Source: Bacteroidota bacterium (GTDB lineage Bacteria; Bacteroidota; Bacteroidia; Bacteroidales; FEN-979). From it: 64,000 nt of DNA. Positions 9,024 to 29,685 of this stretch are shown piece by piece (the stretch's first letter is position 1; the number at the start of each line of letters is the position of its first letter). The position numbers and the translations under genes were made by a program. The notes under the pieces were generated by a model, which did not search any database, was not told where the DNA came from, and saw nothing but the letters and a program-made list of their open reading frames with translations. The stretch covers positions 3,404 to 67,403 of the forward strand of contig JAPLDK010000033.1 of the NCBI GenBank assembly GCA_026391775.1, written 5' to 3'.

Positions 9024-10967
9024 ATGGAAAGATCCAAAGAAAGAGATTTAAGAGATCAAAATAAAGACTTTCCGCCCATGAAAATTTTTGATCACATTGA
9101 TATTGCAGACATTCCAAATGCTTTGCTGATTATAGATCCTGAAACACATACGATTCTTGATGGGAACCAACATGCAAAGGATTTATTCGGGGGTCAGGGA
9201 AAAAATCTGGCAGGATCTGACTGTCAAACGATAGTCTGTGATAATCCCGCAAATTGTCCTTTCAGGGAAAATAACTCAGTCAAATTAAGTCCATCTGAAA
9301 CTATAATCAGAAAAGACGGAAAAGATATACATGTGATCAAGTCTTTCCATGAAACAGTCCTGGATGGAAAGCGGTATATCATTGAAAACATTTATGATCT
9401 GCAATTGCTCAGGGAGGCCGAGATAGAAATTATACAACAGGAAAAGCATTTGAAAGGTATCTATGAAAACGCTACTGTGGGGATGGTCCTGTTGGACATG
9501 AATGGCAACTTTTTCCAGGTTAACAAAGCCTTCTGTGAAATGCTACAGTATTCTGAGGAAGAACTCCTTTCAAGAAAGCTTACCGTAACACATCCCGACG
9601 ATCTCGAATCCAGTGAATATATTCTGGCACAGCTCAGGTCAGGTAAGATCTCAAGGAACATCATGGAGAAACGTTATGTTCGTAAAGACGGGCAGCTCAT
9701 CTTTGTCCTCCATAATGCATCGGTCATGCGGGATCATGAAGGGAATCCGTTATATTTTCTGATCCAGGCACAGGACATAACATATTTAAAAACGGCCCTT
9801 CTCAAAGCAATGGAATCATACCAGCTGAAAACACATTTTCTTCAGAACCTCAGCCATGAAGTAAGAACACCGGCAAATGCGATTTTTGGATTCTGGGAAT
9901 TGATGAAATCACCTTCCATTACCGAATCTGAGCGGGATGAATATATGAATCACCTCCAGGGTGGGGTTGAACAGTTCATGAAGATCATCAATGATATTGT
10001 TGACATGTCAAAGATAGAAACCAGGCAGTTTGAACTTCATCATTCAGTTTTCGATGTGAATACAATGGTTTCAGAATTACACAGGGAATATCATAGGAAA
10101 TTTTATGAACTATGTACAGCCGGGGTCGATTTTACTGTCTTTATGCCCTCCGACTCCTTTGATTTAAAGCTTGAATCGGACTTTGGCAGGGTTAAGCAGA
10201 TCCTGAAAAATCTTTTGGACAACGCATTTAAATTCACCACTTTTGGCCAAATTACAATAGGCTGTCACATACTCCCTGAAAAGGAAATTATTCTTTTTGT
10301 AAAGGACAGCGGTATAGGTATCCCGAAAGAAAAGCTTAACCTGATATTTGGAAAATTCAGGCAGGGGGATGAGTCCAGTACCAGAAAATACGGAGGACTT
10401 GGACTTGGCCTCACCCTGTCAAAAGAGATTGCAGAACTTCTGGGCGGCCGCCTTTGGTTGACATCGGAATACGGAAATGGGACTTCGGTTTTTCTCGCTT
10501 TACCTTATAAAGGAAATGCCTTTGCTGTAAATACTGCTCCAATGGAAAAACAGGAGTATGATATTCCCGATCTGACTGGTAAAACAATTCTTATTGCAGA
10601 GGATGTTGATAATAATTTCCTGGTTCTTGACAGGTTTCTTGTAAAAAGCAATGCAAGGATACTGAGGGCAAGAAACGGGCTTGAGGCCATTGAAATATGC
10701 CGGAACGAGACACAAATTGACCTGGTGTTAATGGATGTACAAATGCCTGTTATAAATGGCTATGAAGCAACACGTGAGATTCTCAGGATGAAACCGGGAA
10801 TACCTGTAATTGCACAAACAGCTTATTCCGTAGATTTCGATGAGCAAAGTGCAGTAACAGCAGGATGCATTGCATACATGGTGAAGCCCCTGAATATGCA
10901 CGAAGTGTTTTCACTGGTGAGTAAATATGTAACATTACGCAACAATAACGAGTCTGTTGACCATTGA
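9024..10967 (+). CDS. PAS-domain hybrid sensor histidine kinase / response regulator
   Basis: Two PAS regions (THPDD, RKDG), SHEVRTP H-box, NLLDNAFKFT, GLGLGL, C-terminal REC (LMDVQMP). Confidence 0.92.
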   Translation: MERSKERDLRDQNKDFPPMKIFDHIDIADIPNALLIIDPETHTILDGNQHAKDLFGGQGKNLAGSDCQTIVCDNPANCPFRENNSVKLSPSETIIRKDGKDIHVIKSFHETVLDGKRYIIENIYDLQLLREAEIEIIQQEKHLKGIYENATVGMVLLDMNGNFFQVNKAFCEMLQYSEEELLSRKLTVTHPDDLESSEYILAQLRSGKISRNIMEKRYVRKDGQLIFVLHNASVMRDHEGNPLYFLIQAQDITYLKTALLKAMESYQLKTHFLQNLSHEVRTPANAIFGFWELMKSPSITESERDEYMNHLQGGVEQFMKIINDIVDMSKIETRQFELHHSVFDVNTMVSELHREYHRKFYELCTAGVDFTVFMPSDSFDLKLESDFGRVKQILKNLLDNAFKFTTFGQITIGCHILPEKEIILFVKDSGIGIPKEKLNLIFGKFRQGDESSTRKYGGLGLGLTLSKEIAELLGGRLWLTSEYGNGTSVFLALPYKGNAFAVNTAPMEKQEYDIPDLTGKTILIAEDVDNNFLVLDRFLVKSNARILRARNGLEAIEICRNETQIDLVLMDVQMPVINGYEATREILRMKPGIPVIAQTAYSVDFDEQSAVTAGCIAYMVKPLNMHEVFSLVSKYVTLRNNNESVDH

Positions 10968-11005
10968 TTTATCCTCTATTTTTCAAACCATTTAATCCTG
11001 ACACA

Positions 11006-14000
11006 ATGAAAAAAATCATTGCTTTCCTTCTTTTTATCTTCCTGGCCTCCGCTGCGATCTGCCAGGACAATCCTCTCTGGATGCGTTATTCAGCAATTTC
11101 TCCCGATGGACAAACAATCCTTTTCTGCTATAAGGGCGACATCTGGTCGGTCCCTTCTGCAGGCGGGTCAGCCGCTCCTCTTACACTCACCGATTCCTAT
11201 GAATATTCGCCGGTATGGAGCCATGACGGTAAAACCATTGCATTCGCTTCCGACCGCAACGGCAATTTCGATATTTTCGTTATGCCCGCAGCAGGAGGCG
11301 CAGCATCAAGGCTTACTTTCATTTCAAACAAGGAAGTCCCCAGCAGCTTTACTGCGAATGATAAAGATGTGATTTTTTCGGCTTACCGCCAGGATGTTTC
11401 AACAAACGCCCAGTTTCCCATTTCACTGATGAGCGAGCTCTATACCGTACCGGTTGCCGGGGGAAAAGTCTCGCTTTTGCTGCCCACGCCGGCACTCGAA
11501 GCCACACCGACATCCACAGGCGACAAAATGATATTTGAAGATATCAAAGGTTATGAGAACGAATGGCGCAAGCATCATACTTCAGCCATTGCCCGTGATA
11601 TCTGGGTTTACGACTTCAATTCGGCAAAATACAAAAAGCTTACCAGTTTCAATGGAGAGGACCGTAACCCGGTGTTTGATGCAAATGACAATGATTTCTA
11701 TTACCTGAGCGAACAAAGCGGTTCCTTTAATATATTTAAGAGTTCTCTGTCGGATCCTTCCAAAACCACCGCTATCACACATTTTTCTAAAAACCCTGTA
11801 CGTTTTCTTACCAGGTCCAAAAATAACATGCTTTGTTTTACTTATGACGGAGAGATCTATACCCTCCAGCCCGGCGGGGAACCAAAAAAAGTCAGCGTCA
11901 GGATCAATGCCGACGGCCGCAGTCCTCAGGAACGCATTACCCCGGTAAATGACGGATTCACCGAAATGAGGCTGGCCCCGAACGGAAAGGAGTTTGTATA
12001 TGTTTTCCGCGGGGAGATCTTTGTAAGCAGCGTCGATGGCGGAATTACCAAGCGAATCACCAATACACCTTACCAGGAACGCAACGTGAGCTTCAGCCCC
12101 GACGGCCGTTCACTTGTTTATGCAGCGGAAGTCAATGGCAGCTGGGATGTTTATACAACTTCCATTGTACGAAAAGAGGAACCCTATTTCTATGCCTCAA
12201 CCGTTTTGAAGGCGGAACCGCTTGTTGCTACCGCTGCTGAGGAATTCCAACCCGAATATTCCCCCGATGGCAAGGAAGTGGCTTACCTTGAGAACAGGGT
12301 AGCGCTCAATGTCATCAACCTGGCAAGTAAAACGACCCGGATGATCATGCCGGCCAATGTGAATTACTCCTATGCCGACGGGGACCAGTACTATCAATGG
12401 TCGCCCGACAGCAAATGGTTCCTGGTGCAGTTCTCATATCCCGAACGGATCTTCACTCCCGAAGTTGGCCTTGTTTCCGCCGACGGCAAGGGCGAGATCC
12501 ACAACCTGACCCTTAGCGGTTATAATGATTATTATCCAAAGTGGTCGGTCGATGGCAAGATGTTCATTTGGGGAAGCGACCGCGACGGCACACGCGACCA
12601 GGGAGGCAACCTCTCAAGCGATGATGTATTTGCCATGTTCCTTACCAAAGCTGCCTTCGAGAGGTTCAAACTTTCAAAAGAGGAGCTTGCCCTGGTAAAA
12701 GAACAGGAAGAAAAGGCCGAAAAGGAGAAAAAGAAATCCGATGAAAAGGCAAAATCCAAAACTGACAAGAAAGCAAAAACCGATACCGCTGCAAAGGATT
12801 CTGCAAAGGTAAAGGTGGTTATCGACTGGGAAAACCTCACTGAGCGTAAGGCCAAACTCACCGTTCACACTTCGCCGGCCAGCGACTGGTTGCTTTCGAA
12901 GGACTGCGAAAAGCTCTATTACCTTACCAGTTTTGAGAAGGATAATGACCTCTGGATGACCGATCTGAGAGCCAAAGAAACCAAGCTGTTTGCAAAGATC
13001 GGGGCTAAAAGTGCTAACATACAGCTTTCTTCGGATGGTAAATTTATTTTAATGATGGCTGATGGCAAACCCATGAAGATAGACGCCGAGAGCGGCAAAG
13101 CAGAACCCCTGAAAACCTCGGGCGAGATGCTTATCAAACCTGCCGATGAACGTTCCTATATCTTCGACCATGCCTGGAGGCAGTTCAAGGAAAAGTTCTA
13201 TGTAGTGGATATGCAGGGCGTCGACTGGGATTATTATTACAAGGTCTATAAGAAGTTCCTGCCCTATGTTAATAACAATTATGATTTTGCAGAAATGCTG
13301 AGCGAGATGCTGGGCGAGATGAATGCCTCACATACCGGATGCGGCTACCGTTCAGGGAAGCCGAACACCGACCAGACCGCCGACCTCGGGCTTTTCTACG
13401 ATTACGATTACAAGGGCAAGGGATTAAAGATATCCGAAGTCATTGAAGGCGGACCGCTTGATAAGGCCATATCGAAAGTTAAAGCGGGAAATGTTATTGA
13501 AAAACTCGATGGAATTGTGCTCAACGACACCATGGATTTTTACAGTCTCCTGAACCGTAAAACCGGCAAGTTAACCCTGCTTTCGGTGTATAATCCTTCA
13601 ACCGGCGACCGCTGGGAGGAAAGCGTAAAACCCATCAGCATAGGCGAAGCCAACGAACTGCTGTACAAACGTTGGGTGAAGAACCGCCGTGCCGAAGTGG
13701 AGCAGCTTTCCGGCGGAAAGATCGGCTATGTTCACGTACGTTCCATGGATGATGCCAGTATGAGGGTGGTTTTTGAGGAAGCCCTTGGTCGCAATTTTGA
13801 AAAGAAAGCACTGATAGTTGATACCCGCTTCAACGGGGGCGGTAATATTCATGAACAGCTTTCCGATTTCCTGAGTGGTAAAAAATACATCGATATTATT
13901 CCCCACGGGCAGTATATCGGTTCCGAGCCATATGACAAATGGGTGAAGCCGTCTATCGTGATCATTGGCGAAAGCAATTACTCCGATGCTCACTTGTTCC

Positions 14001-14260
14001 CCGTTGCCTATAAGCTGAAGAACATAGGGAAGACACTTGGAATGCCTGTTCCGGGCACAGGTACTTTCGTATGGTGGGAAAGCCAGATCGATCCTACCCT
14101 TGTTTTTGGTATTCCTATGGGCGGATGGCGCATGCCCGATGGCAAATTCTGTGAAAACAACCAGCTGGAACCGGATATCAGGATTGCAAACGACCCTGGC
14201 ATTCTCTCATCGGGCCACGATCAGCAGATCGAGGCTGCGGTGACGGAGCTGATGAAATAA
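11006..14260 (+). CDS. S41 family tricorn-like protease with PD40/beta-propeller and PDZ domains
   Basis: SPDG/WSxDG propeller repeats, ASHTG, DTRFNGGGN, ESNYSDAH; start MKKIIAF at 11006. Confidence 0.92.
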   Translation: MKKIIAFLLFIFLASAAICQDNPLWMRYSAISPDGQTILFCYKGDIWSVPSAGGSAAPLTLTDSYEYSPVWSHDGKTIAFASDRNGNFDIFVMPAAGGAASRLTFISNKEVPSSFTANDKDVIFSAYRQDVSTNAQFPISLMSELYTVPVAGGKVSLLLPTPALEATPTSTGDKMIFEDIKGYENEWRKHHTSAIARDIWVYDFNSAKYKKLTSFNGEDRNPVFDANDNDFYYLSEQSGSFNIFKSSLSDPSKTTAITHFSKNPVRFLTRSKNNMLCFTYDGEIYTLQPGGEPKKVSVRINADGRSPQERITPVNDGFTEMRLAPNGKEFVYVFRGEIFVSSVDGGITKRITNTPYQERNVSFSPDGRSLVYAAEVNGSWDVYTTSIVRKEEPYFYASTVLKAEPLVATAAEEFQPEYSPDGKEVAYLENRVALNVINLASKTTRMIMPANVNYSYADGDQYYQWSPDSKWFLVQFSYPERIFTPEVGLVSADGKGEIHNLTLSGYNDYYPKWSVDGKMFIWGSDRDGTRDQGGNLSSDDVFAMFLTKAAFERFKLSKEELALVKEQEEKAEKEKKKSDEKAKSKTDKKAKTDTAAKDSAKVKVVIDWENLTERKAKLTVHTSPASDWLLSKDCEKLYYLTSFEKDNDLWMTDLRAKETKLFAKIGAKSANIQLSSDGKFILMMADGKPMKIDAESGKAEPLKTSGEMLIKPADERSYIFDHAWRQFKEKFYVVDMQGVDWDYYYKVYKKFLPYVNNNYDFAEMLSEMLGEMNASHTGCGYRSGKPNTDQTADLGLFYDYDYKGKGLKISEVIEGGPLDKAISKVKAGNVIEKLDGIVLNDTMDFYSLLNRKTGKLTLLSVYNPSTGDRWEESVKPISIGEANELLYKRWVKNRRAEVEQLSGGKIGYVHVRSMDDASMRVVFEEALGRNFEKKALIVDTRFNGGGNIHEQLSDFLSGKKYIDIIPHGQYIGSEPYDKWVKPSIVIIGESNYSDAHLFPVAYKLKNIGKTLGMPVPGTGTFVWWESQIDPTLVFGIPMGGWRMPDGKFCENNQLEPDIRIANDPGILSSGHDQQIEAAVTELMK

Positions 14261-14297: not shown

Positions 14298-14429
14298 TTG
14301 TATAAATATTCAACACATGTTGAATATTTATACAACACTTATAATAGTACTGATATTCATTCTATTATAAGATTTACATGAAGTCAGTGTATGTTTTTTC
14401 AACACTTTGTTTCGTTTATTTTTTCAACA
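14298..14429. promoter_or_regulatory. Four putative enhancer (UAS) sites, (T/C)GT-N11-ACA with a TTCAACA half-site; the first two form a perfect 18-bp inverted repeat
   Basis: 14299-14315 TGTATAAATATTCAACA, 14318-14334 TGTTGAATATTTATACA, 14388-14404 TGTATGTTTTTTCAACA, 14413-14429 CGTTTATTTTTTCAACA. Confidence 0.65.
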
Positions 14430-14480: not shown

Positions 14481-14495
14481 TGGCATCATTATTGC
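14481..14495 (+). promoter_or_regulatory. Sigma54 (-24/-12) promoter
   Basis: TGGCATCATTATTGC gives GG-N10-GC and matches TGGCAC-N5-TTGC; 38 nt upstream of ATG 14534; a sigma54 activator is encoded in the same locus. Confidence 0.8.
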
Positions 14496-14533
14496 CTAAT
14501 AATGTATAGACATAAATAAGAAATCTTAAAATA

Positions 14534-16225
14534 ATGAAAACCAAAATCTTCACCCTGGTTTGTTTAATACTTTTTTTCTATTGCAACAATCTCAGCAGTA
14601 AAGAAGCAAACAATAAAACCAATTCCGCATCGGGTACAACAAATGTTTACAGCAGTCCCAGGTTATATGACATTGCAAACAAATGGGCGGGAGAATATGC
14701 CCTTTCAAATCCCGGCCAGATCGTTAAGGTTATAAAAACCGAAGAATCAGGGATTGCATCCATTATTAATAAAGGGGATAACATATGCTTTGTTACGAAA
14801 GAAGTTATAGCCTCGGATAAACAGGGACCGGTCTTCCAGGTGGTTGTCGGCAGGGAAATCATTGTTCCCGTAATCAGCCCGAAAAATCCGTTTCTTAAAG
14901 AAATATACGAGAAAGGTATTTCCCGTACAGCCCTGGCCACGAGCCTTGGAACTCCGGGAAAAATGAAATGGGGGACTCTGCTGAACAATAGCCAGAAAAC
15001 CCCTGTAAGATATATTATCCTCGATGATGATTTTATAAAAGCAGGAGTTTCCGGTTTTTTCCATTCTGACCAGGTCTGTATGGAGAGAATAAAAAGTGAA
15101 AACCGGCAAGCTCTGATCTCAGCGGTGCAGAACGACCCTTATGCTATCGGTTTTTGCCGGATGACCGATATTCTCAACTCAAACACATCAACCTTTGCCG
15201 GGAACCTCCTGCTGATGCCAATCGACAAGAATGGCAATGGAAAGATGGATTATATGGAGAAGATCTATGATAATTTCCAGGATTTCTCAAGGGGGGTCTG
15301 GATCGGGAAATACCCGAAAGCCCTGACCAATACTGTTTATTGCATTTCCAAAACTCAACCGTCCGGCAAACCGGAGATCGCTTTCCTCAACTGGATTCTT
15401 ACATCCGGCCAGGCCTTAATGCCGGCAAACGGGTATTCCGATCTGGTAAGCAACGAAAGACAATCACAGCTCTATAAGCTCAACGAACCTCAATATATTG
15501 CCGAAGCTCCTGAAGAAACCAATTCCCTGTGGAAAATTACAATCACAATTCTGGCATTTGTGCTCCTTATCAGTTTCATGCTCGATATTGTGATTAACAG
15601 GTTCAGGACCGGCAATTCAAAGGCAACAGGAATATTGCAGGAAAGGACAGAAGGATTTGGCCAAAGAAATGTGATCGTTCCAAAAGGACTTTATTTTGAC
15701 AAGTCCCATACCTGGGCATTCATGGAACAGGACGGGATGGTCAAAATCGGTATCGATGATTTTCTGCAGCATGTCACCGGCCCTATCACCAGCATCGGGA
15801 TGAAAAGCCCCGGGGTAAGGATCAACAAAGGTGACCAGCTTTGCATCCTTATTCAAAAAGGGAAACATTTGATTGTTCATTCCCCCGTCTCAGGGATTAT
15901 CAGGGAATTTAACCCCGTCTTATCTTCCAATTCATCCGTGATCAACAACTCACCATACTCCGGGGGATGGGTTTACAGGCTGGAGCCCAGCAACTGGTCG
16001 AGGGAAATTGAATTTTTATCAATGGCCGATAAATATAAAGCCTGGTTAAGCAGTGAATTTACACGACTCAGGGATTTTCTGGCCTCTTCATTCCAGGCAG
16101 ATGCTCCCGGGTACGCCCGGCTCACTCTCCAGGATGGCGGTATTCTGAAAGACAATATCCTGGCAGATCTCGGCCCAGAAATATGGGAAGATTTCCAAAC
16201 AAAATTCATCGATACGGTCCGATAA
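14534..16225 (+). CDS. PstS-like periplasmic binding domain, TM helix and glycine cleavage H-like cytoplasmic domain (fusion protein)
   Basis: KWAGEY, IVPVISPKNP, AVQNDPYAIGF, PIDKNGNGKMD, GKYP (PBP-like); TM ITITILAFVLLISFML; LYFDKSHTWA, KIGIDDF, SPVSG, INNSPYSGGW (GcvH-like). Confidence 0.8.
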   Translation: MKTKIFTLVCLILFFYCNNLSSKEANNKTNSASGTTNVYSSPRLYDIANKWAGEYALSNPGQIVKVIKTEESGIASIINKGDNICFVTKEVIASDKQGPVFQVVVGREIIVPVISPKNPFLKEIYEKGISRTALATSLGTPGKMKWGTLLNNSQKTPVRYIILDDDFIKAGVSGFFHSDQVCMERIKSENRQALISAVQNDPYAIGFCRMTDILNSNTSTFAGNLLLMPIDKNGNGKMDYMEKIYDNFQDFSRGVWIGKYPKALTNTVYCISKTQPSGKPEIAFLNWILTSGQALMPANGYSDLVSNERQSQLYKLNEPQYIAEAPEETNSLWKITITILAFVLLISFMLDIVINRFRTGNSKATGILQERTEGFGQRNVIVPKGLYFDKSHTWAFMEQDGMVKIGIDDFLQHVTGPITSIGMKSPGVRINKGDQLCILIQKGKHLIVHSPVSGIIREFNPVLSSNSSVINNSPYSGGWVYRLEPSNWSREIEFLSMADKYKAWLSSEFTRLRDFLASSFQADAPGYARLTLQDGGILKDNILADLGPEIWEDFQTKFIDTVR

Positions 16226-16245
16226 ACTTTCCGTTTCGTGTTTGT

Positions 16246-16278
16246 AAAAAAACTGGTGTCAGATCGCCGGTTTTTTTT
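16246..16278 (+). terminator. Probable intrinsic terminator between the fusion gene and the kinase
   Basis: A7-CTGGTG / TCAGAT loop / CGCCGG-T8; the G-U pairs form only on the + strand. Confidence 0.55.
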
Positions 16279-16300
16279 ATATTGCAGAGAAAATCAACAT

Positions 16301-17953
16301 ATGGATAAGAATAGTACGATAAAGTCAATTTTCAGAAAGTACGTACAATTCCGTTCATCTATATACAGCCGGGTTGTTTTTGTCATCTTTGTTTCTTCCG
16401 TTTTACTTTTTGTTTCATTCAGCATCATTTTCCGTTCGGTAAACGAACAATACCTGAATACCGTGATCCGCCAGAATGGCAATAACATCGGTTCCATTGT
16501 CGGCGGGTCACTTTATCATTCCATGCTCGAGAATGACAAAAGCACCCTGCAGAACACCTTGGATATAATAAATACCATGCCGGGCATCGATGAGGTCAAT
16601 ATGTACGACAGCAAGGACAACCTGGTGTATACATCCATTCCTTCCGATACAAACAATTATCACAGCAACCCCAATTGCATCAGCTGCCACAACAATCTTA
16701 AAACCATGTTTCCCGGGAAAGGGAAACATTACAAGATCATCGATGCCGACAACTATTGCAGGATGACCTACAAGGATAATAAAAGCCGGCACCTGCTGAT
16801 CAAATTGCCGATTCTTAACGAGAAATCCTGTTACGAGAGTTCCTGTCACGCACACCCGGCCAGGGACGAGGTACTTGGTTCCCTTATCATAAAAATCCCC
16901 CTTGCCGACCTTGACGCAGCCATACAGAAATCATCGACCGAATTTTTCCTGCTGGCCATCCTTACTACCTTGATCCTGGTTGGGGTTCTGATAATATTTA
17001 CCCGGCAAAGAATTAAAAAACCCTTAAATGCTTTGGTAAAAGCCAGCACCGCCGTTGCTCAAGGCGATACCAGCACACGGCTCGAGATCAAGCCCAACCA
17101 GCTCGAAGACATGAAGATGGTTTCCCAGGCTTTCAACGAAATGCTTGATAACCTGCAGGCCGCCACAAACGAACTGGAAAACTGGTCCCAGCAGCTGGAA
17201 TATAAAGTAAGGAAGAAATCGGAAGAATTAAGCGCCGCCCAGAATGAGATGATCCATATCGAACGGCTTGCTTCCTTGGGGAAATTGTCATCCTCGGTGG
17301 CTCATGAAATCAACAACCCCTTATCGGGGATCCTCATCTATGCAAAGCTTATTTATAAACAACTCAGCAACCCCGAATTATATGCAAGCAAGCGGGAGTC
17401 CATGCTGAAACATTTAAAACTGATCGAGAACGAAGCGAAGCGCTGCGGTGATATTGTAAAAGGCCTTCTTGAGTTTTCGAAAAAAGACCAGGAGGATTTC
17501 GAACCCAGGCATTTACATGAGATCCTGCTGGAAACCTATGAACTGATGACCCATCCCATTAAAATTGCAAATATTCATTTTTATACCGATTTCCTTGCAA
17601 CCTCCGACCTGATCTATTGCAGCCCAAACCAGATCAAGCAGGCCTGTATAGCCATACTGGTAAATTCAAGCGAGGCAGTGCATGAGAACGGGGAAATAAT
17701 CATCCGGACACTTAATCCAAATGAAGAAACCCTGAGATTCGAGATCATTGACAATGGCATCGGGATCTCTGCGGAAGACATCCCCCATATTTTCGAACCT
17801 TTCTTCTCGACCAAGCAAAAAGCCAGCGGGATCGGCCTCGGGCTGGCGATTGTCCACGGAATCGTACAAAGCCATAACGGCAAAATACAGGTGAAATCCG
17901 AGCCGGGAAACGGAACTGCCTTTTCAATAACATTACCCCTGATCAGAAATTAA
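16301..17953 (+). CDS. Sensor histidine kinase with periplasmic CxxCH motif, HAMP, HisKA and HATPase
   Basis: Two TMs, CISCH and CYESSCH in the periplasmic loop, VAHEINNPL H-box, FEPFFSTK..GIGLGL; start MDKNST at 16301. Confidence 0.9.
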   Translation: MDKNSTIKSIFRKYVQFRSSIYSRVVFVIFVSSVLLFVSFSIIFRSVNEQYLNTVIRQNGNNIGSIVGGSLYHSMLENDKSTLQNTLDIINTMPGIDEVNMYDSKDNLVYTSIPSDTNNYHSNPNCISCHNNLKTMFPGKGKHYKIIDADNYCRMTYKDNKSRHLLIKLPILNEKSCYESSCHAHPARDEVLGSLIIKIPLADLDAAIQKSSTEFFLLAILTTLILVGVLIIFTRQRIKKPLNALVKASTAVAQGDTSTRLEIKPNQLEDMKMVSQAFNEMLDNLQAATNELENWSQQLEYKVRKKSEELSAAQNEMIHIERLASLGKLSSSVAHEINNPLSGILIYAKLIYKQLSNPELYASKRESMLKHLKLIENEAKRCGDIVKGLLEFSKKDQEDFEPRHLHEILLETYELMTHPIKIANIHFYTDFLATSDLIYCSPNQIKQACIAILVNSSEAVHENGEIIIRTLNPNEETLRFEIIDNGIGISAEDIPHIFEPFFSTKQKASGIGLGLAIVHGIVQSHNGKIQVKSEPGNGTAFSITLPLIRN

Positions 17954-17965
17954 GATAAAGAAATA

Positions 17966-19303
17966 ATGGCCAGAAAAATTTCAATTTTAGTCGTTGATGA
18001 TGAAGAATCGGTAAGAGATTCATTAAGCAACTGGTTTATTGAAGACGGCTACCGGGTGGAGTGTGCCGAAAATGCGAGGAAAGCTCTGCTTCTCATCGAA
18101 TCCTCCTATTTTGACATCATCCTTGCAGATATCAAGATGCCCGGCATGGACGGGCTGGAGATGCTGAGGCGGATCAAATCACTGAGAAACGATGCCATCG
18201 TGATCGTGATGACAGCCTTCGCTTCGGTCAATACGGCAGTCATGGCCCTGAAGGACGGGGCTTTTGATTATGTTACAAAACCATTTGATCCCGATGACCT
18301 TTCCCATCTGATACGGAATGCTTCAAAACAGATCCTCCTGGCCCAGGAGAACGAAACCCTTAGAAACAAAGTTGTTTCCCTGGAAAGTGTCGAAGACCTG
18401 ATCGGGAACAGCGAGGCCATGAAAAAGGTTCTCAAGCAGGTAGAGAGTGTTGCACAGTCAAATTCTTCCGTCATTATCACAGGTGAAAGTGGTACCGGGA
18501 AAGAATTGATAGCCAGGGCGATTCATGCGAATTCCTCCCGGAAATACTATCCCCTGGTGAGCGTGCATTGCGGCGCCCTTACCGAAAGCCTGCTCGAAAG
18601 CGAGTTGTTCGGCCATGAGAAAGGAGCATTCACCGGTGCGATGTATAACCGGAAAGGCAGGTTTGAGATGGCCGACAGCGGTACCATCTTCCTGGATGAG
18701 ATTGCCACCATTTCCCCCAAGATGCAGATCGAACTCCTGAGGGTCCTCGAAACAAAATCCTTCGTGAGGGTTGGCGGGAACAAAGAAACTTCTTCAGACT
18801 TCCGGGTCATTTGCGCAACCAACCGGGACCTGAAGAGCATGGTCGAACAGGGTTCCTTCAGGGAGGATCTCTATTACCGCCTGAATGTTGTGAACATTAA
18901 CGTGCCTCCCCTGCGCGAAAGGGTTGAGGACATCCCCCTTCTGGTCGATTACTTCATAAAAAAATACTGCACTACGATGAACAAGCCGCCCATCAATATA
19001 GATGACGCGGCAATGCAAAGGATGGAGGAATATCCCTTTCCCGGGAATATACGTGAGCTTGAAAACATGATCGAAAGGGCTATCGTAATCGGAAACGGGA
19101 AGAAAATCACCTTAAAGGACCTGCCCCTGGGTAAGGATATGATCGATAATTCAATAGAAAGCCTGGATGATTTCGAAAAAACCTTCATCCTCCAAATCCT
19201 TAATAAATACAGCTGGAATATCACACGCACGGCCAAGGCATTGAAAGTCGACAGGGTGACGCTTTACAACAAGATCAAAAAATATGATCTGAAGCCTGAT
19301 TAA
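17966..19303 (+). CDS. Sigma54-dependent response regulator (NtrC/AtoC family)
   Basis: REC (ADIKMP), GESGTGKE, ESELFGHEKGAFTGA, FLDEI, Fis-type HTH. Confidence 0.95.
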   Translation: MARKISILVVDDEESVRDSLSNWFIEDGYRVECAENARKALLLIESSYFDIILADIKMPGMDGLEMLRRIKSLRNDAIVIVMTAFASVNTAVMALKDGAFDYVTKPFDPDDLSHLIRNASKQILLAQENETLRNKVVSLESVEDLIGNSEAMKKVLKQVESVAQSNSSVIITGESGTGKELIARAIHANSSRKYYPLVSVHCGALTESLLESELFGHEKGAFTGAMYNRKGRFEMADSGTIFLDEIATISPKMQIELLRVLETKSFVRVGGNKETSSDFRVICATNRDLKSMVEQGSFREDLYYRLNVVNINVPPLRERVEDIPLLVDYFIKKYCTTMNKPPINIDDAAMQRMEEYPFPGNIRELENMIERAIVIGNGKKITLKDLPLGKDMIDNSIESLDDFEKTFILQILNKYSWNITRTAKALKVDRVTLYNKIKKYDLKPD

Positions 19304-19371: not shown

Positions 19372-19926
19372 ATGGCTCAACAAAATATCACATTGATCTC
19401 TTACGGGTATTTCGGGAAACAATTTCTTGAGAAGATCGCAGAGGCAGTAAAACAGGAATATAAATTTCCTGTGAATTTCAAAGAATCCCATTTGGACCTA
19501 AGTGAATTTTTCGACCCGGGAAGAAGGCAGTATAACGGGAATAAATTATTGCATGCGGTTGAGGCCATATCCAGGCCGGAGGCATTGAAAACCGTGGGAT
19601 TATTCAGCGTTGATCTTTTTATCCCTATCCTGACTTATATTTTCGGGCAGGCTCTTTTGAACGGACGTACCGGAATTGTCTCACTCTACCGCTTAAGTAA
19701 TGAACGTTACGGGATAGAAGCCGATGACAAACTGCTCCTGGAAAGGTTTACCAAGGAAGTTATTCACGAATTGGGCCATACCTTCGGATTGATCCATTGT
19801 ATGGCTCCAAGCTGCGTTATGAGGTCCAGTACTTATGTTGAAGACATCGATCAGAAAAACCAGAATCTCTGCCACCATTGCCGGGAACAACTATCCACGG
19901 TAATACCTGATCAGATTATTGGTTGA
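19372..19926 (+). CDS. Archaemetzincin (M54) zinc metallopeptidase
   Basis: [19 protein letters not shown] Met-turn, C..C Cys4 zinc site. Confidence 0.9.
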
Positions 19927-22242
19927 ACTGTCATGATCGGGCTGCTTCCGCCTGTTCTGCAATTCGGGGATGATCTTCATGGCCAGGATTTTTCCCAGTT
20001 CCACTCCCATTTGGTCGAAGGGATTGATCCCCCATATTACGCCCTGGGTATAAACGGCATGTTCATACATCGCAACCAGCTTGCCCAGTATCCCGGGCGT
20101 GAGCTTATCCATGAAGAATGTTGAAGACGGCCGGTTTCCTTCGAAAACCTTATGGGGCACAAGATGATCGGGAACACCTTCTTTTTTTACTTCGTCTGCG
20201 GATTTTCCGAATGCGAGGGCCTCACCCTGCGCGATCATATTTGCCATCAGGTAGTCCTGATGAAGCGGAAGCGGGTTTAATGAAGTTCTGAATCCCAGGA
20301 AATCACAGGGAATAATGGAAGTTCCCTGGTGGATCAGCTGATAAAACGAATGTTGTCCGTTAGTTCCCGGTTCCCCCCAGTAAACCGCTCCGGTCTGGTA
20401 ATTGGTTTTCGTCCCGTCCAGGGTGACATGTTTCCCGTTGCTTTCCATCGTCAGCTGCTGCAGATAGGCCGGGAAGCGGCTTAGATAGTTATCATAGGGT
20501 AAAACAGCCTGGGTCATTGCCCCGAAGAAATCAACATACCACACACCAAGCAGTCCCATGATCACCGGGATGTTCTTGTCAAACGGCACAGTCCGGAAGT
20601 GTTCGTCCATCTGGTGAAAGCCATCCAGCATCAGATAAAAATTATCAGGACCAATGGCAATCATGGTTGATAAGCCGATAGCGGAATCCAAGGAATACCT
20701 TCCGCCCACCCAGTCCCAGAAACCAAACATGTTACGGGTGTCAATCCCGAATGCGCTTACTTCTTTTTCGTTGGTAGAGACAGCCACAAAGTGGCGTGCA
20801 ACAGCCTGTTCATTAACAAGTTTATCCAACAGCCATTTTCTTGCTGTACGGGCATTGGTCATTGTTTCCAGGGTAGTAAAGGTCTTTGAGGAGACAATGA
20901 ACAGGGTTTCTTCAGGCAGCAAATCCCTGACGGCCTCTGCGAAATCATTTCCATCGATGTTGGATACAAAACGGAAAGTAATATCCCTCTGAGCATAAAA
21001 CTTCAATGCCTCGTAAGCCATCACCGGCCCAAGATCCGATCCTCCGATGCCAATATTCACTATATTCCTGATGATTTTACCGTTATGACCTTTCCATTCA
21101 CCATACCGTATGGCAGTTGCAAATTCAGCCATCTTTTCAAGGACTTCATGCACATCAGGAACCACATTATGGCCATCAACCATGATAATCGCTCCCTTTG
21201 GCGCCCTTAAGGCAGTATGCAGCACCGCTCTGTTTTCGGTGATATTGATTTTTTTTCCTGAAAACATGGCTTCGATTTTCTCGCTTAAACCTCTTTCCCC
21301 GGCCAGCTGTAAAAGCAGGTTCAGGGTTTTGGCTGTAATGCGGTGTTTTGAAAAGTCAAAATATATCCCCAGCTCCTCTAAACTAAACCGTTCTGCACGG
21401 TTTGAATCCTCGCTGAACATGGATCTCAGGGATATGTTTTTTATCTCCTGAAAGTGCTTCTCCAGTAACTTCCAGGCGGGTGATTCAGTTAATTGGTTTT
21501 TCATTTTTAGTATACATTTTAATTTGAATGCCGATTTCTGATCAAGCAGCCAGACCAGTTCCCCGTTTTCGGGCCTTACAAGGGCTGCAGGCAGATGATC
21601 CCAACCACTTAGCTGGTTTATAATCCGGGCAACCTTTGAGGCCTTGGCTTCTCCGCTTGCAAGAATTACAACTGTTTTTGCATTGTTGATGATTTTCCCG
21701 CATGCAGTGATCCGTTTCTGCTTCGTTTCCGGATGTTCCGTGACTTCAAAAAATTTATCACTGTGGAAGAGATCGATGTTAGCTGGAAAAATGGAAGCAG
21801 TATGACCGTCTTCGCCAAGCCCAAGCATCAGGAGATCAGCCCGGGGAATCCCATTATATTGATTCACATGCCTGGCGAATAGTTCAGAGTACTTTACGGC
21901 TTCTGCGGCAGGGTCTTGTTCTCCATGGATCCTGAATATATTGGCTGAAGGGATAGGAACATGCTCCAGCAGGTTCTCGCTGGCCATCCTGAAGTTGCTG
22001 TCCTCCGATTCAGGCCCGACACAACGTTCATCTCCCCAGAAAACCTTAACTTTATTCCAGTCAATACTGTCTCTGCAGCATAAAACAATTTCCCTGAAAA
22101 TTTTTTTTGGCGTGGTTCCTCCTGATAATACCCATGAGAATTTTTGGTCACGGGGTGTTTCCCTGACGCAAAGTTCAAGAATTGAAGCAAAATATTGCGC
22201 TAATTCATCAAGAGTTTCAACTATTTTTATTGTAGTCCCCAT
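19891..22242 (-). CDS. pgi: In-frame 6-phosphogluconolactonase (Pgl, about aa 1-246) and glucose-6-phosphate isomerase (Pgi, from Met at 21504)
   Basis: [25 protein letters not shown] (Pgl); [41 protein letters not shown] (Pgi); no stop between the parts. Confidence 0.88.
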
Positions 22243-22244
22243 TC

Positions 22245-23765
22245 TTATAATTCGCAGTAAATACCGTCATCAGCCAGGTTTTTACAAGGGTACCGCCAGG
22301 TCATCTCCTTACCTTCAATCAGATCGTCGGCTTGTTCAGGTCCCCAGGTTCCTGCCGGATACCCATACAGAGGAACTTCATGCTCGTTTTTCCATGCTTC
22401 AATTACAGGGGCAAGAAATTTCCATGCTTCGAGCAACTCTTCGGTCCTTGCAAACAAGGTAGCATCCCCGTTTATCGAATCAAAGATCAGCCTTTCATAA
22501 GCCGACGGGATTCTTTGATTTGAAAGATCTTTGTAGTGAAAATCCATATTAACATTCTGGACCTCAAAGCCGGCGCCAGGCGTTTTCATCCCGAATTTCA
22601 AAAGGATTCCTTCATCAGGCTGGATTCTAATAACCAGCTGATTCCAAGCCTGACGGTACCCGTGGCCCGAGAACAGAAAATGCGGGGTTGGTTTGAAATG
22701 GATTACAACCTCGGTTACGCGGGTTGGCATCCGTTTGCCGGTGCGGATATAAAACGGAACTCCACCCCAGCGCCAGTTGTCAATATAAAACTTTAATGCC
22801 GCAAAAGTCTCTGTGAGGGAGTCCGGGTCAACACCTTCTTCCTCCCGGTAGCCTTTTATGGCTTTGCCCTTAACCGTCGAGGATACGTATTGCCCTCGAA
22901 TGGCGGAATTTCTCACATCTTCTCTTCGTATAGGCCTTAATGACTGTAAAACTTTTAATATTTCATTTCGTATGGCGGAAGGGTCCAGGGACGACGGCGG
23001 CTCCATGGCTGTGAGGGCGGCCACCTGCAACAAATGATTCTGAACCATATCACGCAGTGAACCTGAGCTGTCGAAGTACCCGCCCCGCTTCTCAACCCCT
23101 ATGCTTTCCGCAGAAGTAATTTCAACATGATGTATATAATTCCTGTTCCACAAGGGTTCGAACATTCCGTTTGAAAATCTTGTGACCAGAAGATTCTGAA
23201 CAGTTTCTTTGCCTAAGTAGTGGTCGATCCTGAACAACTGGCCCTCATCCCAGTCATTCAGCAACAGGTTTTTAAGTTTTATGGCAGATTCAAGATCATA
23301 GCCAAATGGTTTTTCGATGATCAGCCGTTTCCAGCCATCGTCCTGCTGATGAAGGCCCACAGCCGCAAGATGTCGGGGGATTATGCCATACAAACTGGGA
23401 GGGGTTGACATATAAAAAACGGTATTTCCCCCTATCTGGAATTGGCTCCGCAACGTATCAAGCTCCTGCTTTAGTGTAAAATATGCTGAAACGTTATCGA
23501 ACTGAATGGCCGTATAATGAAGTTTTGCTGTGAATTCGTCAATTCCTGAAGCATCATCAATTTCCTTAAATTCATTGATGGCCGATTTCATTCCTTCCCT
23601 GAAATCCTCAGTTGTGATCATAGAACGGGAAACACCAAGAAGGATGAACCTTTCCGGCAATAATTTCTGGATATAGAGTGAGTATAAAGCGGGGATCAGC
23701 TTTCTTTTAGTTAAATCGCCGGAAGCTCCGAAGATGACATAGATAAGGCTATCGGTACTACTCAT
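22245..23765 (-). CDS. zwf: Glucose-6-phosphate 1-dehydrogenase
   Basis: [29 protein letters not shown]. Confidence 0.96.
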
Positions 23766-23769
23766 TTTG

Positions 23770-24672
23770 TTACTCTTTTATTTTGACGGCATGGCCACCG
23801 AACTGGTTCCGGAGCGCTGCAAGCATCTTCATGGCAAAGGATTCCTTCTGCCGCGACTGGAAGCGGTTATACAGGGAAGCTGTGATTACATGGGCAGGTA
23901 CGTCAAAATCAATAGCCGTTTGCACAGTCCAGCGTCCTTCCCCGCTATCCTGAACAAAATCTTCCAGGTAATCCAGTTTGGGATCTGCCTTAAGGGCATC
24001 CACAGCCAGTTCCAGCAGCCATGACCGAACAACGCTTCCATATTGCCAGGCATCGGCGATTTTTGGCAAATCCAGGTCAAATGGAGTTTTTTCAAGGATC
24101 TCAAACCCCTCGGCAAATGACTGCATCATTCCATATTCAATCCCGTTATGGACCATCTTCACCAGGTGGCCGGTGCCGGATATCCCGCAATAAACATATC
24201 CATGTTCGGGAGCCAGGGATTTGAACAAGGGTTCAGCATATTTCGCTGCTTCCCTGTTTCCCCCGTACATCAGGCAGTATCCGTTTTTCAGCCCCCAAAC
24301 TCCGCCGCTTGTGCCGCAATCAATGTAATGGACGCCATGTAAAGCCGCTCTTCCGGCGCGGGCCTGTGTATCCCTCCAGTAAGAGTTTCCCCCGTCGATA
24401 ATGATATCCTCTTTGTTTAATAAGGTCAGAAGCAGATCAAGGTTATCGTCCACAGGTTTACCGGCAGGGACCATCATCCAGACGATTTTACGCCCGGGAA
24501 GTTTTTCGGTCAGGTCTTTTACAGAGGTGGCACCGATGGCACCCTTTTTGGAAATTTCATCAACGGTTGCGAGCGTCCTGTTCCATACCACTATTTCATG
24601 ATGATCGTTTAATAAGCGCCGGACCATATTAAAGCCCATCTTTCCTAGTCCGATAAACCCGATTCTCATCAT
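23770..24672 (-). CDS. gnd: 6-phosphogluconate dehydrogenase (decarboxylating), short form
   Basis: GLGKMG, IDGGN, TSGGVWG, KMVHNGIEYG, RNQFGGH. Confidence 0.94.
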   Translation of the reverse strand: MMRIGFIGLGKMGFNMVRRLLNDHHEIVVWNRTLATVDEISKKGAIGATSVKDLTEKLPGRKIVWMMVPAGKPVDDNLDLLLTLLNKEDIIIDGGNSYWRDTQARAGRAALHGVHYIDCGTSGGVWGLKNGYCLMYGGNREAAKYAEPLFKSLAPEHGYVYCGISGTGHLVKMVHNGIEYGMMQSFAEGFEILEKTPFDLDLPKIADAWQYGSVVRSWLLELAVDALKADPKLDYLEDFVQDSGEGRWTVQTAIDFDVPAHVITASLYNRFQSRQKESFAMKMLAALRNQFGGHAVKIKE

Positions 24673-24918: not shown

Positions 24919-25965
24919 TTACACCGAAACTTTAAAATACTTCACTTTGAATCTTAACGCCACATTCACCAGGGCGATCAGCACCGGCACCTCCACCAAA
25001 GGACCGATGACAGCTGCAAAGGCTTCACCTGAATTTATCCCGAAAACAGCAATGGCAACGGCAATAGCCAGCTCGAAATTGTTGCTTGCCGCTGTAAACG
25101 AAAGTGTCGCTGACTGTTCGTATGTTGCTCCAACCCTTTTACCCATCCAGAACGATACCAGGAACATGATCACAAAGTAAATGCATAAAGGAATAGCAAT
25201 GAGAATGACATCCAGGGGGATCCTGATAATGTATTCCCCTTTGAGCGAAAACATCACGAGTATGGTGAAAAGCAAGGCTAAGAGGGTAAGCGGACTGATT
25301 TTCGGAATAAATTTCGTATGATACCACTCCTTGCTTTTTATCCTTATAAGGATGAATCTCGTGAGAAATCCCGCCAGGAAAGGTATCCCAAGATATATGA
25401 AAACACTTTTGGCAATTTGTAATATAGTGATATTCTCAACGATGCTGTTCGTAGGAAGCCCGAACCATGCAGGGAAAACAGCAATGAAAAGCCAGGCATA
25501 TAATGAAAAAAACAAGACCTGGAAGATGGAATTGAAAGCCACAAGCCCGGCACAATATTCGGTATCGCCTTTAGCCAGTTCGTTCCATACGATTACCATG
25601 GCAATGCATCGGGCAAGGCCGATCAGGATCAGCCCGTACATATAGTCTATGTTAAATTGCAGGAAAATAATGGCCAGGAGAAACATAAGCACCGGCCCTA
25701 TCAGCCAGTTCTGGACTAATGACAACCCTAATACCCTGGTGTTTTTAAACACATCGCCCAACTCCTCATATTTAACTTTGGCCAGGGGAGGATACATCAT
25801 CACGATGAGTCCGATGGCAATAGGGATATTGGTCGTTCCCGACGACATGGAGTTCCAGAAGCCGGCAATACCTGGATAAAGCCATCCCCAAAAAACACCA
25901 ATAGCCATAGCCAGAAAGATCCATAAGGTCAGATAACGGTCTAAAAATTTCAGTCTTGTTTTCAT
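24919..25965 (-). CDS. acr3: ACR3 family arsenite efflux transporter
   Basis: [46 protein letters not shown]. Confidence 0.95.
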
Positions 25966-25969
25966 ATTG

Positions 25970-26398
25970 TCAAATTTTCAGGTCATTATAAAACTGCATA
26001 AATCTTGCCCTGATCTCATCCCTCACCCTGCGGTAAACCGCCATCACCTCATCCGCAGTCCCCACAGCATCTGCAGGATCGTCAAAGCCGATATGCAAAC
26101 GATGTCTAACATTCCCGATAAATACTGGGCAAATTTCTTTGGCCCCGTCACAAACCGTGATCACATAATCAAATGGCTCGGCAACAAAAAGATCGACATT
26201 TTTAGGTTTGTTTTCAGAGATATCAATCCCCGCTTCTTTCATGGCTGCCACTGCATTGGGGTTGGGCCGTAATGCAGGTTTTGTTCCTGCTGAATATACT
26301 TCAAGCCCGGGATCAAAGGATCTCAAAAATCCTTCCGCCATCTGGCTGCGGCAGGAGTTTCCGGTACAGAGGATCAGGATTTTCATAATTGAATTCAA
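25970..26398 (-). CDS. arsC: Arsenate reductase, LMW-PTP / thioredoxin-coupled type
   Basis: [18 protein letters not shown]....CP, FDDP. Confidence 0.93.
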
Positions 26399-26414
26399 GG
26401 TTATGAATAAAACA

Positions 26415-28133: not shown

Positions 28134-28147
28134 TTTCTTCCCGGATT

Positions 28148-28477
28148 TCAGGATACCTGAGGAATGAATTCAAGATTAACCCCTGTCCATTCGGTGAGCT
28201 GTTCATTGGTAGGATACTTTTTGGCAACTTCCAGTTTGCCATCCACAAGCGTTATCGGAAGGGCATCGGCACCATTCTCCTGTAGAAATTTGTTCACTAC
28301 TGAGTTATCGACATAAAGCTGAGGTACATCCCGTAAATTATGACGCATAATCTCCACATCTTTACGTTTAAGCGCTTCAACTGCCGCTGCAATTCTCATT
28401 AAATCAGGATTAATATTGGGGCCGCATAATCCCGTAGGACAACACAGAGCCGGGTCAAAAATTTCGATCTTCTTCAT
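28148..28477 (-). CDS. arsD: Arsenic metallochaperone
   Basis: FDPALCCPTGLCG, LPITLVDG, YPT. Confidence 0.93.
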   Translation of the reverse strand: MKKIEIFDPALCCPTGLCGPNINPDLMRIAAAVEALKRKDVEIMRHNLRDVPQLYVDNSVVNKFLQENGADALPITLVDGKLEVAKKYPTNEQLTEWTGVNLEFIPQVS

Positions 28478-28503
28478 GATCTGTTTTTGTTTATGATTCG
28501 TTA

Positions 28504-28519
28504 TTCGTAGAAAAACGAA
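28504..28519. promoter_or_regulatory. Putative ArsR operator upstream of arsD
   Basis: TTCGT-AGAAAA-ACGAA, nearly identical to the palindrome upstream of arsR. Confidence 0.65.
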
Positions 28520-28556
28520 GTATTAAGATAAAAAATTCATTTTATGATATTCATGG

Positions 28557-29255
28557 TCATAAAAAGAAAATGAGGATGTAATAGATCCCAACCAGAATAA
28601 ATAAGACCGCTACCACCCTGCGAAACCAGAGTTCAAACACTTTGATCCGGTTGTAAAGCTTCCCAACATTTCCCACGGCATAAGCCAGGAGCCAGGCAAA
28701 AATGATCACAGGCAAGCCGGTGGCAAACGCAAAAACCACGGGGAGGTACAAACCTGTCGGACTGGCTATTGTAATAGGGATCAGCATGGCGAAATAAAGG
28801 ACCCCGCTGTATGGGCAGAAGGCCATTGCAAAGATAATTCCTAGTATCAGTGTACCCCGGTAGCTTCGCTTGCTGTGCTCGCCCATCTTTTCAGCCAGCC
28901 CGGAAAAACCGGGGAACCTGATCTTAATAACGTCCAGCATGAAAAGCCCGATCAGTATAAGCAGGGGGCCCAGCAGCTTTTCGCCCCAGCCCTGGAACAG
29001 CAGGCTGACTTTCATCTTGCTGGCACCGAAATAAAGTATCACTCCCAGCCCGGTGTACGAAATCGCCCTTCCCAGCGTATATACAAGTCCTTTAATAAAT
29101 ACTCGCCGCCGGTTCTCAATATCCCGGCTGATAAACCCTATGGCTGAAATATTAGTGGCCAGCGGACAGGGGCTGATGGCAGTCATCAAACCCAGGATAA
29201 AGGCCGTGAGCGTAGCATACTGTGAATTCTCTAAAATCGCCTGAAGATATTGCAT
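28557..29255 (-). CDS. ArsG-like / CcdA-DsbD-type membrane protein
   Basis: ISPCPLATN and AFCPYS TM cysteines, multi-TM, located in the ars operon. Confidence 0.8.
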   Translation of the reverse strand: MQYLQAILENSQYATLTAFILGLMTAISPCPLATNISAIGFISRDIENRRRVFIKGLVYTLGRAISYTGLGVILYFGASKMKVSLLFQGWGEKLLGPLLILIGLFMLDVIKIRFPGFSGLAEKMGEHSKRSYRGTLILGIIFAMAFCPYSGVLYFAMLIPITIASPTGLYLPVVFAFATGLPVIIFAWLLAYAVGNVGKLYNRIKVFELWFRRVVAVLFILVGIYYILIFFL

Positions 29256-29279
29256 AATTTTCGCTATCTCGCTATTTCG

Positions 29280-29675: not shown

Positions 29676-29685
29676 GGTAATGGGT

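Follow-up and report, generated by a model that had tools for sequence, protein, structure and literature searches.

How two folds known from housekeeping proteins, that of the phosphate-binding protein PstS and that of the glycine cleavage H-protein GcvH, come to be joined across a membrane in one polypeptide, and what such a protein might do, are questions raised by a gene in a 64-kb stretch of DNA (hereafter the window) from the Bacteroidota assembly GCA_026391775.1 (contig JAPLDK010000033.1, positions 3,404 to 67,403). We report that the product of this gene, here referred to as P0001, is a real fusion and a member of a conserved membrane-protein family of the Bacteroidota, and that its gene is followed by genes for a sensor histidine kinase, a sigma-54 activator and an archaemetzincin, i.e. 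a zinc protease of the M54 family. Our best explanation, to which we assign a probability of roughly 0.5, is that P0001 is a membrane-tethered accessory protein or target of a self-contained sigma-54 operon, with its C-terminal tail being a substrate or pseudo-substrate of the archaemetzincin. An earlier reading of the locus, made from the DNA letters and the predicted translations (the sequence-only reading), had proposed two housekeeping folds repurposed into a one-piece receptor with a protein-interaction output. This interpretation is partly supported: both folds are real, both of their defining sites are lost and the fusion is a conserved family. A receptor role is conjectural, and the operon context, with its haem-motif kinase, sigma-54 activator and archaemetzincin and, in most relatives, NrfC, NrfD and another tethered GcvH-like protein, had been missed.

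The fusion protein and its operon

The domain content of the window was scanned over 48 open reading frames (ORFs) of at least 110 aa. P0001 consists of a signal peptide, a periplasmic domain (residues 24-325), one transmembrane (TM) helix and a cytoplasmic domain (residues 366-563), and both the ORF and this architecture, as first proposed from the letters, are borne out by Pfam, by structure models and by a hydropathy scan, in which the protein opens with a short hydrophobic stretch of the signal type. In a search of 5.8 billion proteins, 1991 of the 8000 candidates scored were relatives at E ≤1e-3; all but one of the 120 relatives listed are 553-590 aa long and contain PF01597, and many also contain PF12849. 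Moreover, a relative is encoded in 467 of 487 pattern-matched stretches from contigs representing one genome per species, and the best 80 stretches almost always carry a Bacteroidota label. An assembly chimera was considered and rejected, given the 1991 database relatives with a near-uniform length among those listed, the 467 stretches, and a 700-nt DNA contig from an independent study that spans positions 15844-16542 with 0 differences and bridges the P0001 stop codon and the kinase start, thus crossing the 3' junction. Public records annotate the fusion as 'hypothetical protein', and among the papers listed in a literature search none describes P0001 or its operon.

The locus counts below refer to the best 80 stretches with a relative; 62 of these contain both the fusion and the kinase gene, in a conserved gene order, and 59 of the 62 also show the regulator gene. 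Prolixibacteraceae such as Draconibacterium and Mariniphaga are represented among the loci. Upstream of the P0001 gene there is a candidate sigma-54-type -24/-12 promoter, preceded by two direct TTCAACA copies and by a perfect palindrome that includes the same heptamer (Table 1); the palindrome is a candidate binding site for the activator, and could alternatively be a hairpin after the upstream gene. A scan of the whole window with the sigma-54 consensus was not above chance (25 matches compared with 32 expected), and the promoter is credible because the motif is conserved across loci rather than from the single match: of 59 loci, 53 have TGGCAY-N5-TTG[AC] in the 150 nt before the start of the orthologue, compared with 0.005 per 150 nt in the background. 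Among 11 loci shown individually, 9 have a single such motif, one has none and one has a second. The TGTTGA/TTCAACA block is kept in 9 close relatives, in whose alignment the first direct copy (14398-14404) is invariant, and among the 45 promoter-like motifs of the genome this is the only one with two or more TTCAACA-type half-sites upstream. The operon therefore looks self-regulated with P0001 as its first product and, being encoded by the first gene behind a conserved sigma-54 promoter, P0001 is no less a target of the signalling than an input to it. The features of a sigma-54-dependent two-component operon, a receiver-AAA+-helix-turn-helix (HTH) activator and a -24/-12 promoter, are thus both present, as far as can be judged from sequence.

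The periplasmic domain of the kinase matches no Pfam family at E ≤0.01. It carries CxxCH and CxxxxCH motifs, and all 51 evaluable orthologues conserve residues C147, C150, H151, C174, C198, C203, H204 and H206 (61 rows, 10 of which were dropped because extension of the ORF halted at an upstream stop codon), making it a putative haem-attachment domain. The mechanical start of the kinase, a GTG at 16238, probably lies too far upstream, since in ten orthologues a stop codon interrupts the corresponding stretch; an ATG at 16301 is the more probable start. The gap between the fusion and kinase genes in the window is 12-75 nt. Two loci, L055 (11683-15081) and L063 (11609-14933), have two tandem haem-motif kinases, 62-64% identical to the window kinase, between a small GcvH paralogue (see below) and the regulator.

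The regulator is 76-95% identical across loci, and among the NCBIfam models the kinase and the regulator are closest to AtoS/ZraS and AtoC/ZraR, not PhoR/PhoB. The archaemetzincin scores 164.8 bits with NF033823 (cut-off 145) and has the HExxHxxGxxH motif, the Met-turn and four Cys of the family, and H132, E133, H136, H142, C143, C148, M150, C167 and C170 are invariant among 39 sequences. Of the 59 loci, 51 have its gene after that of the regulator, and the other 8 end before that point. As to expression, none of the listed records with the stretch is RNA; an RNA library from the same sample as one of the DNA records with the stretch contains two 151-nt contigs that match 14562-14838, at the 5' end of the P0001 gene, with 0 differences, which is a hint, not proof, of transcription. 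The other matches of this library, in the regulator gene, have 2-6 differences in 28-51 nt and belong to other organisms.

A modelled complex with the archaemetzincin

The C-terminal tail of P0001, with the LQDGG and WEDFQ stretches pointed out by the sequence-only reading, is present and highly conserved: its loop contains the invariant Q533-D534-G535-G536, and W551, F554 and Q555 are in its terminal helix. A complex of the cytoplasmic part of P0001 and the archaemetzincin was modelled with two zinc ions, the input being one alignment of 39 and one of 41 sequences. The ipSAE values (interaction prediction score from aligned errors) were 0.76, 0.70 and 0.73 (median 0.73), compared with 0.00 for the best of three controls, and the runs share at least 89% of their contacts with a partner pLDDT (predicted local distance difference test) of at least 87. 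The complex passes the mark for this score, as do 58 of 80 solved complexes and 2 of 110 mismatched pairs; these counts hold only roughly here because own alignments and added zinc ions were used. The solved archaemetzincins (2x7m, AmzA; 3zvs/4axq, AfAmzA) are single-protein entries, and it is therefore unlikely that the pass stems from a remembered complex.

In the model, residues 84-98, H132, E133, H136, I141-H142 and 152-155 of the protease face residues 507-520 and 529-539 of P0001, and the lowest-error pairs place L532 and D534 against H132, E133, H136 and H142, that is, the zinc ligands and the catalytic Glu. Residues 165-170 of the partner (model numbering) run antiparallel to the edge strand 96-90 of the protease, over the HExxH site; antiparallel binding is described as the substrate mode by Graef et al. 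(2012; PMC3427221). The model thus lends support to the idea that the tail helix 507-520 and the loop 529-539 with its invariant LQDGG would dock into the archaemetzincin as a substrate would. That P0001 has a protein-interaction output had been suggested from the letters without naming a partner; the controlled model backs this and points to the archaemetzincin.

The two genes also tend to occur together. An M54 match is present in 50 of 301 genomes from the phylum and, among the matches listed (150 of 240), at least 27 genomes have a match to the cytoplasmic module that reaches the tail (query end ≥186). M54 is found as well in 26 of these 27 tail-bearing genomes, 19 of which have both genes, among the matches listed, on one contig within 10 kb.

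Several observations weigh against this explanation of P0001 and its operon. The complex score is a model confidence, not a measurement, and the predicted interface leaves out G443-K444 as well as W551, F554 and Q555 of the terminal helix. For 7 of the 26 genomes the pair is split between contigs or separated by 81 kb, 24 of the 50 M54 genomes are without a tail-bearing protein among the matches listed, and the co-occurrence counts overstate the link because kin are not independent. A weaker point is that no longer protein fusing the M54 domain was found at E ≤1e-5 among 1162 candidates. Finally, the regulon scan used a crude count of half-sites, and contigs from an RNA library can contain DNA.

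With these points in mind, the operon might work as follows. The kinase would sense a periplasmic redox cue through its putative haems, and the phosphorylated activator would switch on the operon. The tethered H-fold protein would then present its tail for cleavage near L532-G536, or D534 would hold the protease latent at the membrane, and the state of the periplasmic domain, whose ligand would be other than phosphate, might modulate how the tail is presented. The proteolytic step at the membrane could feed back on the response or carry it out. The more specific proposal that the tethered H-fold protein is the natural partner of the archaemetzincin, with the LQDGG loop either cleaved or acting as an aspartate-type latency plug, is one that we put forward tentatively and with less confidence than the general reading.

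If true, this would be a new signalling step in which a haem-sensing sigma-54 system and a periplasmic domain control one specific proteolytic event on the membrane's inner face, and the H-protein fold would serve as a protease-presenting scaffold rather than as a cofactor carrier. It would also bear on the biology of the proteases. According to Graef et al. (2012; PMC3427221), archaemetzincins have no known natural substrate and the solved enzymes are inactive on standard substrates, for which stringent specificity or missing activating factors were suggested as the reason; knowledge of their biology was scant at the time of that paper. A conserved, co-transcribed protein with a loop that is modelled into the active site would be a testable candidate in this regard.

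Full and reduced operons and the two replaced sites

A second explanation places the action of P0001 on the periplasmic side. Known co-sensors of histidine kinases, such as TorT for TorS, LuxP for LuxQ and ChvE for VirA, are binding proteins that are soluble and without a cytoplasmic part. By analogy with TorT/TorS and LuxP/LuxQ, the periplasmic domain of P0001 could bind a ligand and contact the haem domain of the kinase, and the cytoplasmic part would be an anchor or dimeriser. The fold is indeed that of a ligand-binding protein, and in seven loci the fusion gene still adjoins the kinase gene after the intervening genes have been lost; yet the cytoplasmic module is more conserved than the periplasmic domain (mean column identity 66% versus 57%), and in 54 loci the same module is also present in a paralogue that lacks the periplasmic domain. 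We consider such a role doubtful as the main function of P0001, and note that it is compatible with the protease reading, the two not being exclusive.

The intervening genes are best seen in locus L003, where the 2.9 kb between the fusion and kinase genes holds three genes. These encode a four-cluster ferredoxin of the NrfC/HybA type with a twin-arginine translocation (Tat) signal, an NrfD-family membrane protein, and a 242-aa small paralogue of P0001 that consists of a TM helix, a GcvH fold and a tail, and shares with P0001 the G-K hairpin and the QDGG of the tail. Records of metagenome-assembled genomes (MAGs) name this paralogue 'glycine cleavage system protein H', probably a misannotation. 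Across the 62 loci the cassette is full in 54, reduced in 7 (none of the three genes) and partial in 1, and the window has the reduced form. The fusion, kinase, regulator and protease are kept in all reduced forms. With the L003 proteins as queries, neither a cassette-type NrfD nor a small paralogue turned up elsewhere in the genome of the window, which is 90.7% complete; three other, distant NrfD-family genes occur there.

In a quick SH-aLRT (Shimodaira-Hasegawa approximate likelihood-ratio test) tree the reduced loci are spread over at least three clades, each with support of its own (L001, L002, L004 and L005 together with the window; L041; L038 with L062), and the partial locus L020 represents a fourth case of cassette loss. 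L020 has a 237-nt NrfD remnant between the fusion and kinase genes that looks like a deletion scar. This locus is labelled as an uncultured Eubacteriales MAG and nests within the Bacteroidota on the tree; the label of the bin is, from its sequence, probably wrong.

The regular position of NrfC, NrfD and the small paralogue between the fusion and kinase genes (54/62 loci), taken with the failure to find the cassette-type NrfD and paralogue in a genome of this completeness, might indicate that P0001 is a structural subunit of an NrfC/NrfD membrane module and, here, a decaying leftover. This we regard as improbable, since the ORF is intact with all family-invariant residues kept, the promoter is intact, and the reduced form has endured in three or more separate clades and is found in independent samples; the identical RNA-library contigs add a weak argument in the same direction. 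The best reading of the cassette is that NrfC/NrfD and the small paralogue are an optional add-on that has been lost in this genome, leaving a minimal set of four: tethered H-fold protein, kinase, activator and protease.

Two further explanations take the folds at face value, and the evidence on the folds weighs heavily against both. The model of the cytoplasmic part (pLDDT 74.7) superimposes on the pea H-protein 1dxm with Z 17.1 and a root-mean-square deviation of 1.6 Å over 131 residues (VIA-align), and HMMER matches it to E. coli GcvH (3a8i) with E 8.8e-17. That the canonical lipoyl-lysine motif is lost, as the sequence-only reading had it, holds in the alignment to GcvH: neither K442 nor K444 is in the canonical E-S/A-V-K column at the hairpin tip, which is occupied by G443, and the lysines are at -1 (K442, variable) and +1 (K444, invariant, as is G443, in the family). 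In the model, K442-G443 form a two-residue turn between strands 435-441 and 444-449. P0001 stays below the cut-offs of both GcvH equivalog models (NF002270, 73.7 versus 117; TIGR00527, 61.7 versus 115.85), which the genome's own canonical 126-aa gcvH product with EAVKT passes (165.8 and 144.4, respectively). Domains of GcvT, GcvP, PstC, PstA and PstB were not detected among the 48 window ORFs, in agreement with the earlier observation that the corresponding genes are missing from the window.

In lipoyl domains, lipoylation is abolished when the lysine is moved by a single position. A lipoylated or acylated carrier, with K444 or K442 as a swinging arm for redox or one-carbon chemistry at the membrane, could invoke the complete H-protein fold and the invariant Lys one residue after the canonical column; with this shift, an invariant Gly in the column itself, scores far below both equivalog cut-offs, a canonical gcvH elsewhere in the genome and no gcvT or gcvP in the window, it is very unlikely. 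Concerning the wider occurrence of the module, the ESM Atlas returned only generic GCV_H clusters (170-215 aa, other phyla, scores 0.88-0.92), which are leads only. Many genomes of one family group have ORFs of about 390 aa with a GcvH-like part that matches the module only to about position 150-180, i.e. without the full tail (for example G185:C2:350284-350805 and G149:C17:158603-159055), and these may represent another architecture of the H-protein fold.

On the periplasmic side, TIGR02136 (PstS family) matches residues 2-303 weakly (E 1e-4; 21.6 bits compared with a cut-off of 206.6). The model of the domain (pLDDT 85.4, alignment of 41 sequences) has a class II binding-protein fold of the PstS type according to Foldseek: the top matches are 4jwo (E 4.6e-14, TM-score on the query, TMq, 0.63) and 4n13 (TMq 0.63), and the further neighbours 4pqj, 4omb, 1twy and 1a54 (E. 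coli PstS) are all PstS-type as well; identity to 4jwo and these neighbours is 12-16%. The Ser/Thr/Arg phosphate-binding segments had not been evident from the letters, and two alignments agree that all three anion-binding segments are replaced, Arg included. In the profile alignment to solved PstS proteins, SSPD is under GSDT, the G-S-rich second segment faces residues that are acidic or variable, and the Arg faces V/I/L. The genome has a pstS-like gene of its own (contig C60), directly followed by pstC (258.9 bits, cut-off 196.45) and pstA, and its product is 25% identical to the fusion domain over 325 residues (E 5e-34); here the Arg of FTRSD aligns with L162 of ILDDD in P0001, and GGAGKG with TEESGI. 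The lost anion-site positions are occupied by the acidic residues E70-E71 and D163-D165, and phosphate is an unlikely ligand on these grounds. A phosphate sensor that reports to the two-component system, for which PstS as the closest solved fold and the 25% identity to the genome's pstS could be cited, can hence be set aside as highly improbable, given that all three anion-binding segments are replaced, with acidic residues in the place of the lost Arg, that TIGR02136 remains far from its cut-off and that the two-component pair belongs to the AtoS/ZraS and AtoC/ZraR rather than the PhoR/PhoB type.

The periplasmic domain further includes an EF-hand-like loop (Table 1), in which the 41 sequences show no variation at D231, N233, N235 and E242 and at least 90% conservation at G236 and D239. 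The pattern of DxDxDG-type calcium loops has oxygen-bearing residues at positions 1, 3, 5, 9 and 12 and Gly at 6, and this is what we find, without flanking helices in the model; the loop is probably a structural Ca2+ site. The loop that the sequence-only reading had singled out is hence real and conserved. It is not special to the fusion, since the genome's pstS beside pstC and pstA has an identical PID-x-NGNGK-x-D loop, and it is therefore inherited from a Bacteroidota PstS lineage. Taken together, the findings show that the PstS and GcvH folds are re-used beyond transport and cofactor carriage in hundreds of species of anaerobic Bacteroidota.

Features of the window and comparison with known systems

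The features discussed above are collected in Table 1.

Table 1. Coordinates of the P0001 operon and its elements (positions in the 64-kb window)
Feature	Position	Strand	Description and basis
Palindrome	14299..14334	+	Perfect, 36 bp, TTCAACA / TGTTGAA inverted pair; candidate enhancer (activator-binding) site
Two direct TTCAACA copies	14398-14404, 14423-14429	+	About 55-85 nt upstream of promoter
Candidate sigma-54-type -24/-12 promoter	14481..14496	+	TGGCAT-N5-TTGC; 38 nt before ATG
Fusion gene P0001	14534..16225	+	563 aa; signal peptide / PstS-fold / TM / H-protein-fold / tail
Periplasmic PstS-fold domain	14603..15508	+	Residues 24-325, anion-binding segments replaced; model, Foldseek, profile versus PDB
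EF-hand-like loop	15224..15259	+	D231-K-N-G-N-G-K-M-D-Y-M-E242 (DxNxNG-type); conservation; putative calcium site
Single TM helix	15530..15601	+	Residues 333-356 (about); Kyte-Doolittle scan; basic residues on C-terminal (cytoplasmic) side
H-protein (GcvH) fold domain	15689..16051	+	Residues 386-506; Pfam GCV_H (PF01597) E 4.5e-22; model; PDB match
Hairpin tip K442-G443-K444	15857..15865	+	In Q-K-G-K; canonical lipoyl-lysine column = G443
C-terminal tail	16052..16222	+	Residues 507-563; helix 507-520, loop R529-K539, terminal helix
Sensor histidine kinase	16238..17953	+	TM1, periplasmic ~165 aa, TM2, HAMP, HisKA, HATPase; Pfam; TM scan
NtrC-type response regulator	17966..19303	+	Receiver, sigma-54 AAA+, Fis-type HTH; Pfam, NCBIfam; Sigma54_activat E 2e-71
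Archaemetzincin (M54) zinc protease	19372..19926	+	184 aa; 11-residue motif and four Cys; PF07998

Just upstream of P0001 is a gene for a 1098-aa tricorn-like protease (PD40 repeats, Tricorn_C1, Peptidase_S41; 10964-14260, +); it probably lies outside the operon, since it is upstream only in the nearest relatives (L002, L003 and L004) and not in distant loci. Elsewhere in the window, a compact oxidative pentose-phosphate operon occupies 19891-24672 on the minus strand; it encodes a 783-aa protein in which 6-phosphogluconolactonase (Glucosamine_iso domain) is fused to phosphoglucose isomerase and, after it, glucose-6-phosphate dehydrogenase and a short 6-phosphogluconate dehydrogenase. On the same strand, 24922-30262 holds an arsenic-resistance-type string with an SBF/Acr3-type carrier, a low-molecular-weight phosphatase (ArsC-like), an ArsA ATPase, a DsbD_2-type membrane protein, a 131-aa ORF and an ArsR-type regulator. 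Three proteins with the Fib_succ_major (Fibrobacter succinogenes major) domain are encoded at 36-584, 1489-2154 and 48631-49017, and a typical cargo set of the type IX secretion system (T9SS) is found at 51459-59119 (+), where a PorP/SprF-family protein and an OmpA/PD40 protein come after a protein of 1518 aa that bears a CHU_C type IX secretion signal.

Compared with known systems, the periplasmic domain of P0001 shares its two-lobe fold with PstS and PBP_like_2 proteins (PF12849, TIGR02136), and with the genome's Bacteroidota pstS product it has in common the PID-x-NGNGK-x-D loop and an FL-x-W-x-LT-x-GQ motif. Unlike PstS, it has replaced anion segments and no transporter partner, is tethered through a TM helix to a cytoplasmic domain and falls far below the family cut-off. 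Likewise, the complete H-protein fold is shared with GcvH (PF01597, TIGR00527) and with the non-lipoylated look-alikes TIGR03077 ('not_gcvH') and NF045810 ('GcvH-related protein'), from all of which P0001 differs in the Gly in the lipoyl column, the membrane tether, the extra conserved tail of 57 residues, scores below all cut-offs and the lack of a gcvT/gcvP context.

Archaemetzincins (MEROPS M54) occur from archaea to humans. The neighbour of P0001 passes the family cut-off and keeps the HExxHxxGxxH motif, the Met-turn and the four Cys; in contrast to the solved enzymes, the spacer from the Met to the last Cys pair is 16 residues rather than 17, and the gene is part of a bacterial operon with a candidate partner.

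As in TorT, LuxP and ChvE systems, a binding-protein fold is encoded beside a kinase with a periplasmic sensor domain, but P0001 is tethered and has a cytoplasmic part, whereas those co-sensors are soluble and have none. ZraP-ZraS-ZraR and PspA-PspF are sigma-54 operons whose accessory-protein target feeds back on the sensor, and in these systems, as in the P0001 operon, a sigma-54 promoter precedes the gene of an envelope-located accessory protein. Unlike ZraP and PspA, P0001 is encoded inside the same operon and has an unrelated architecture, and the set includes a protease and a kinase with haem-c motifs.

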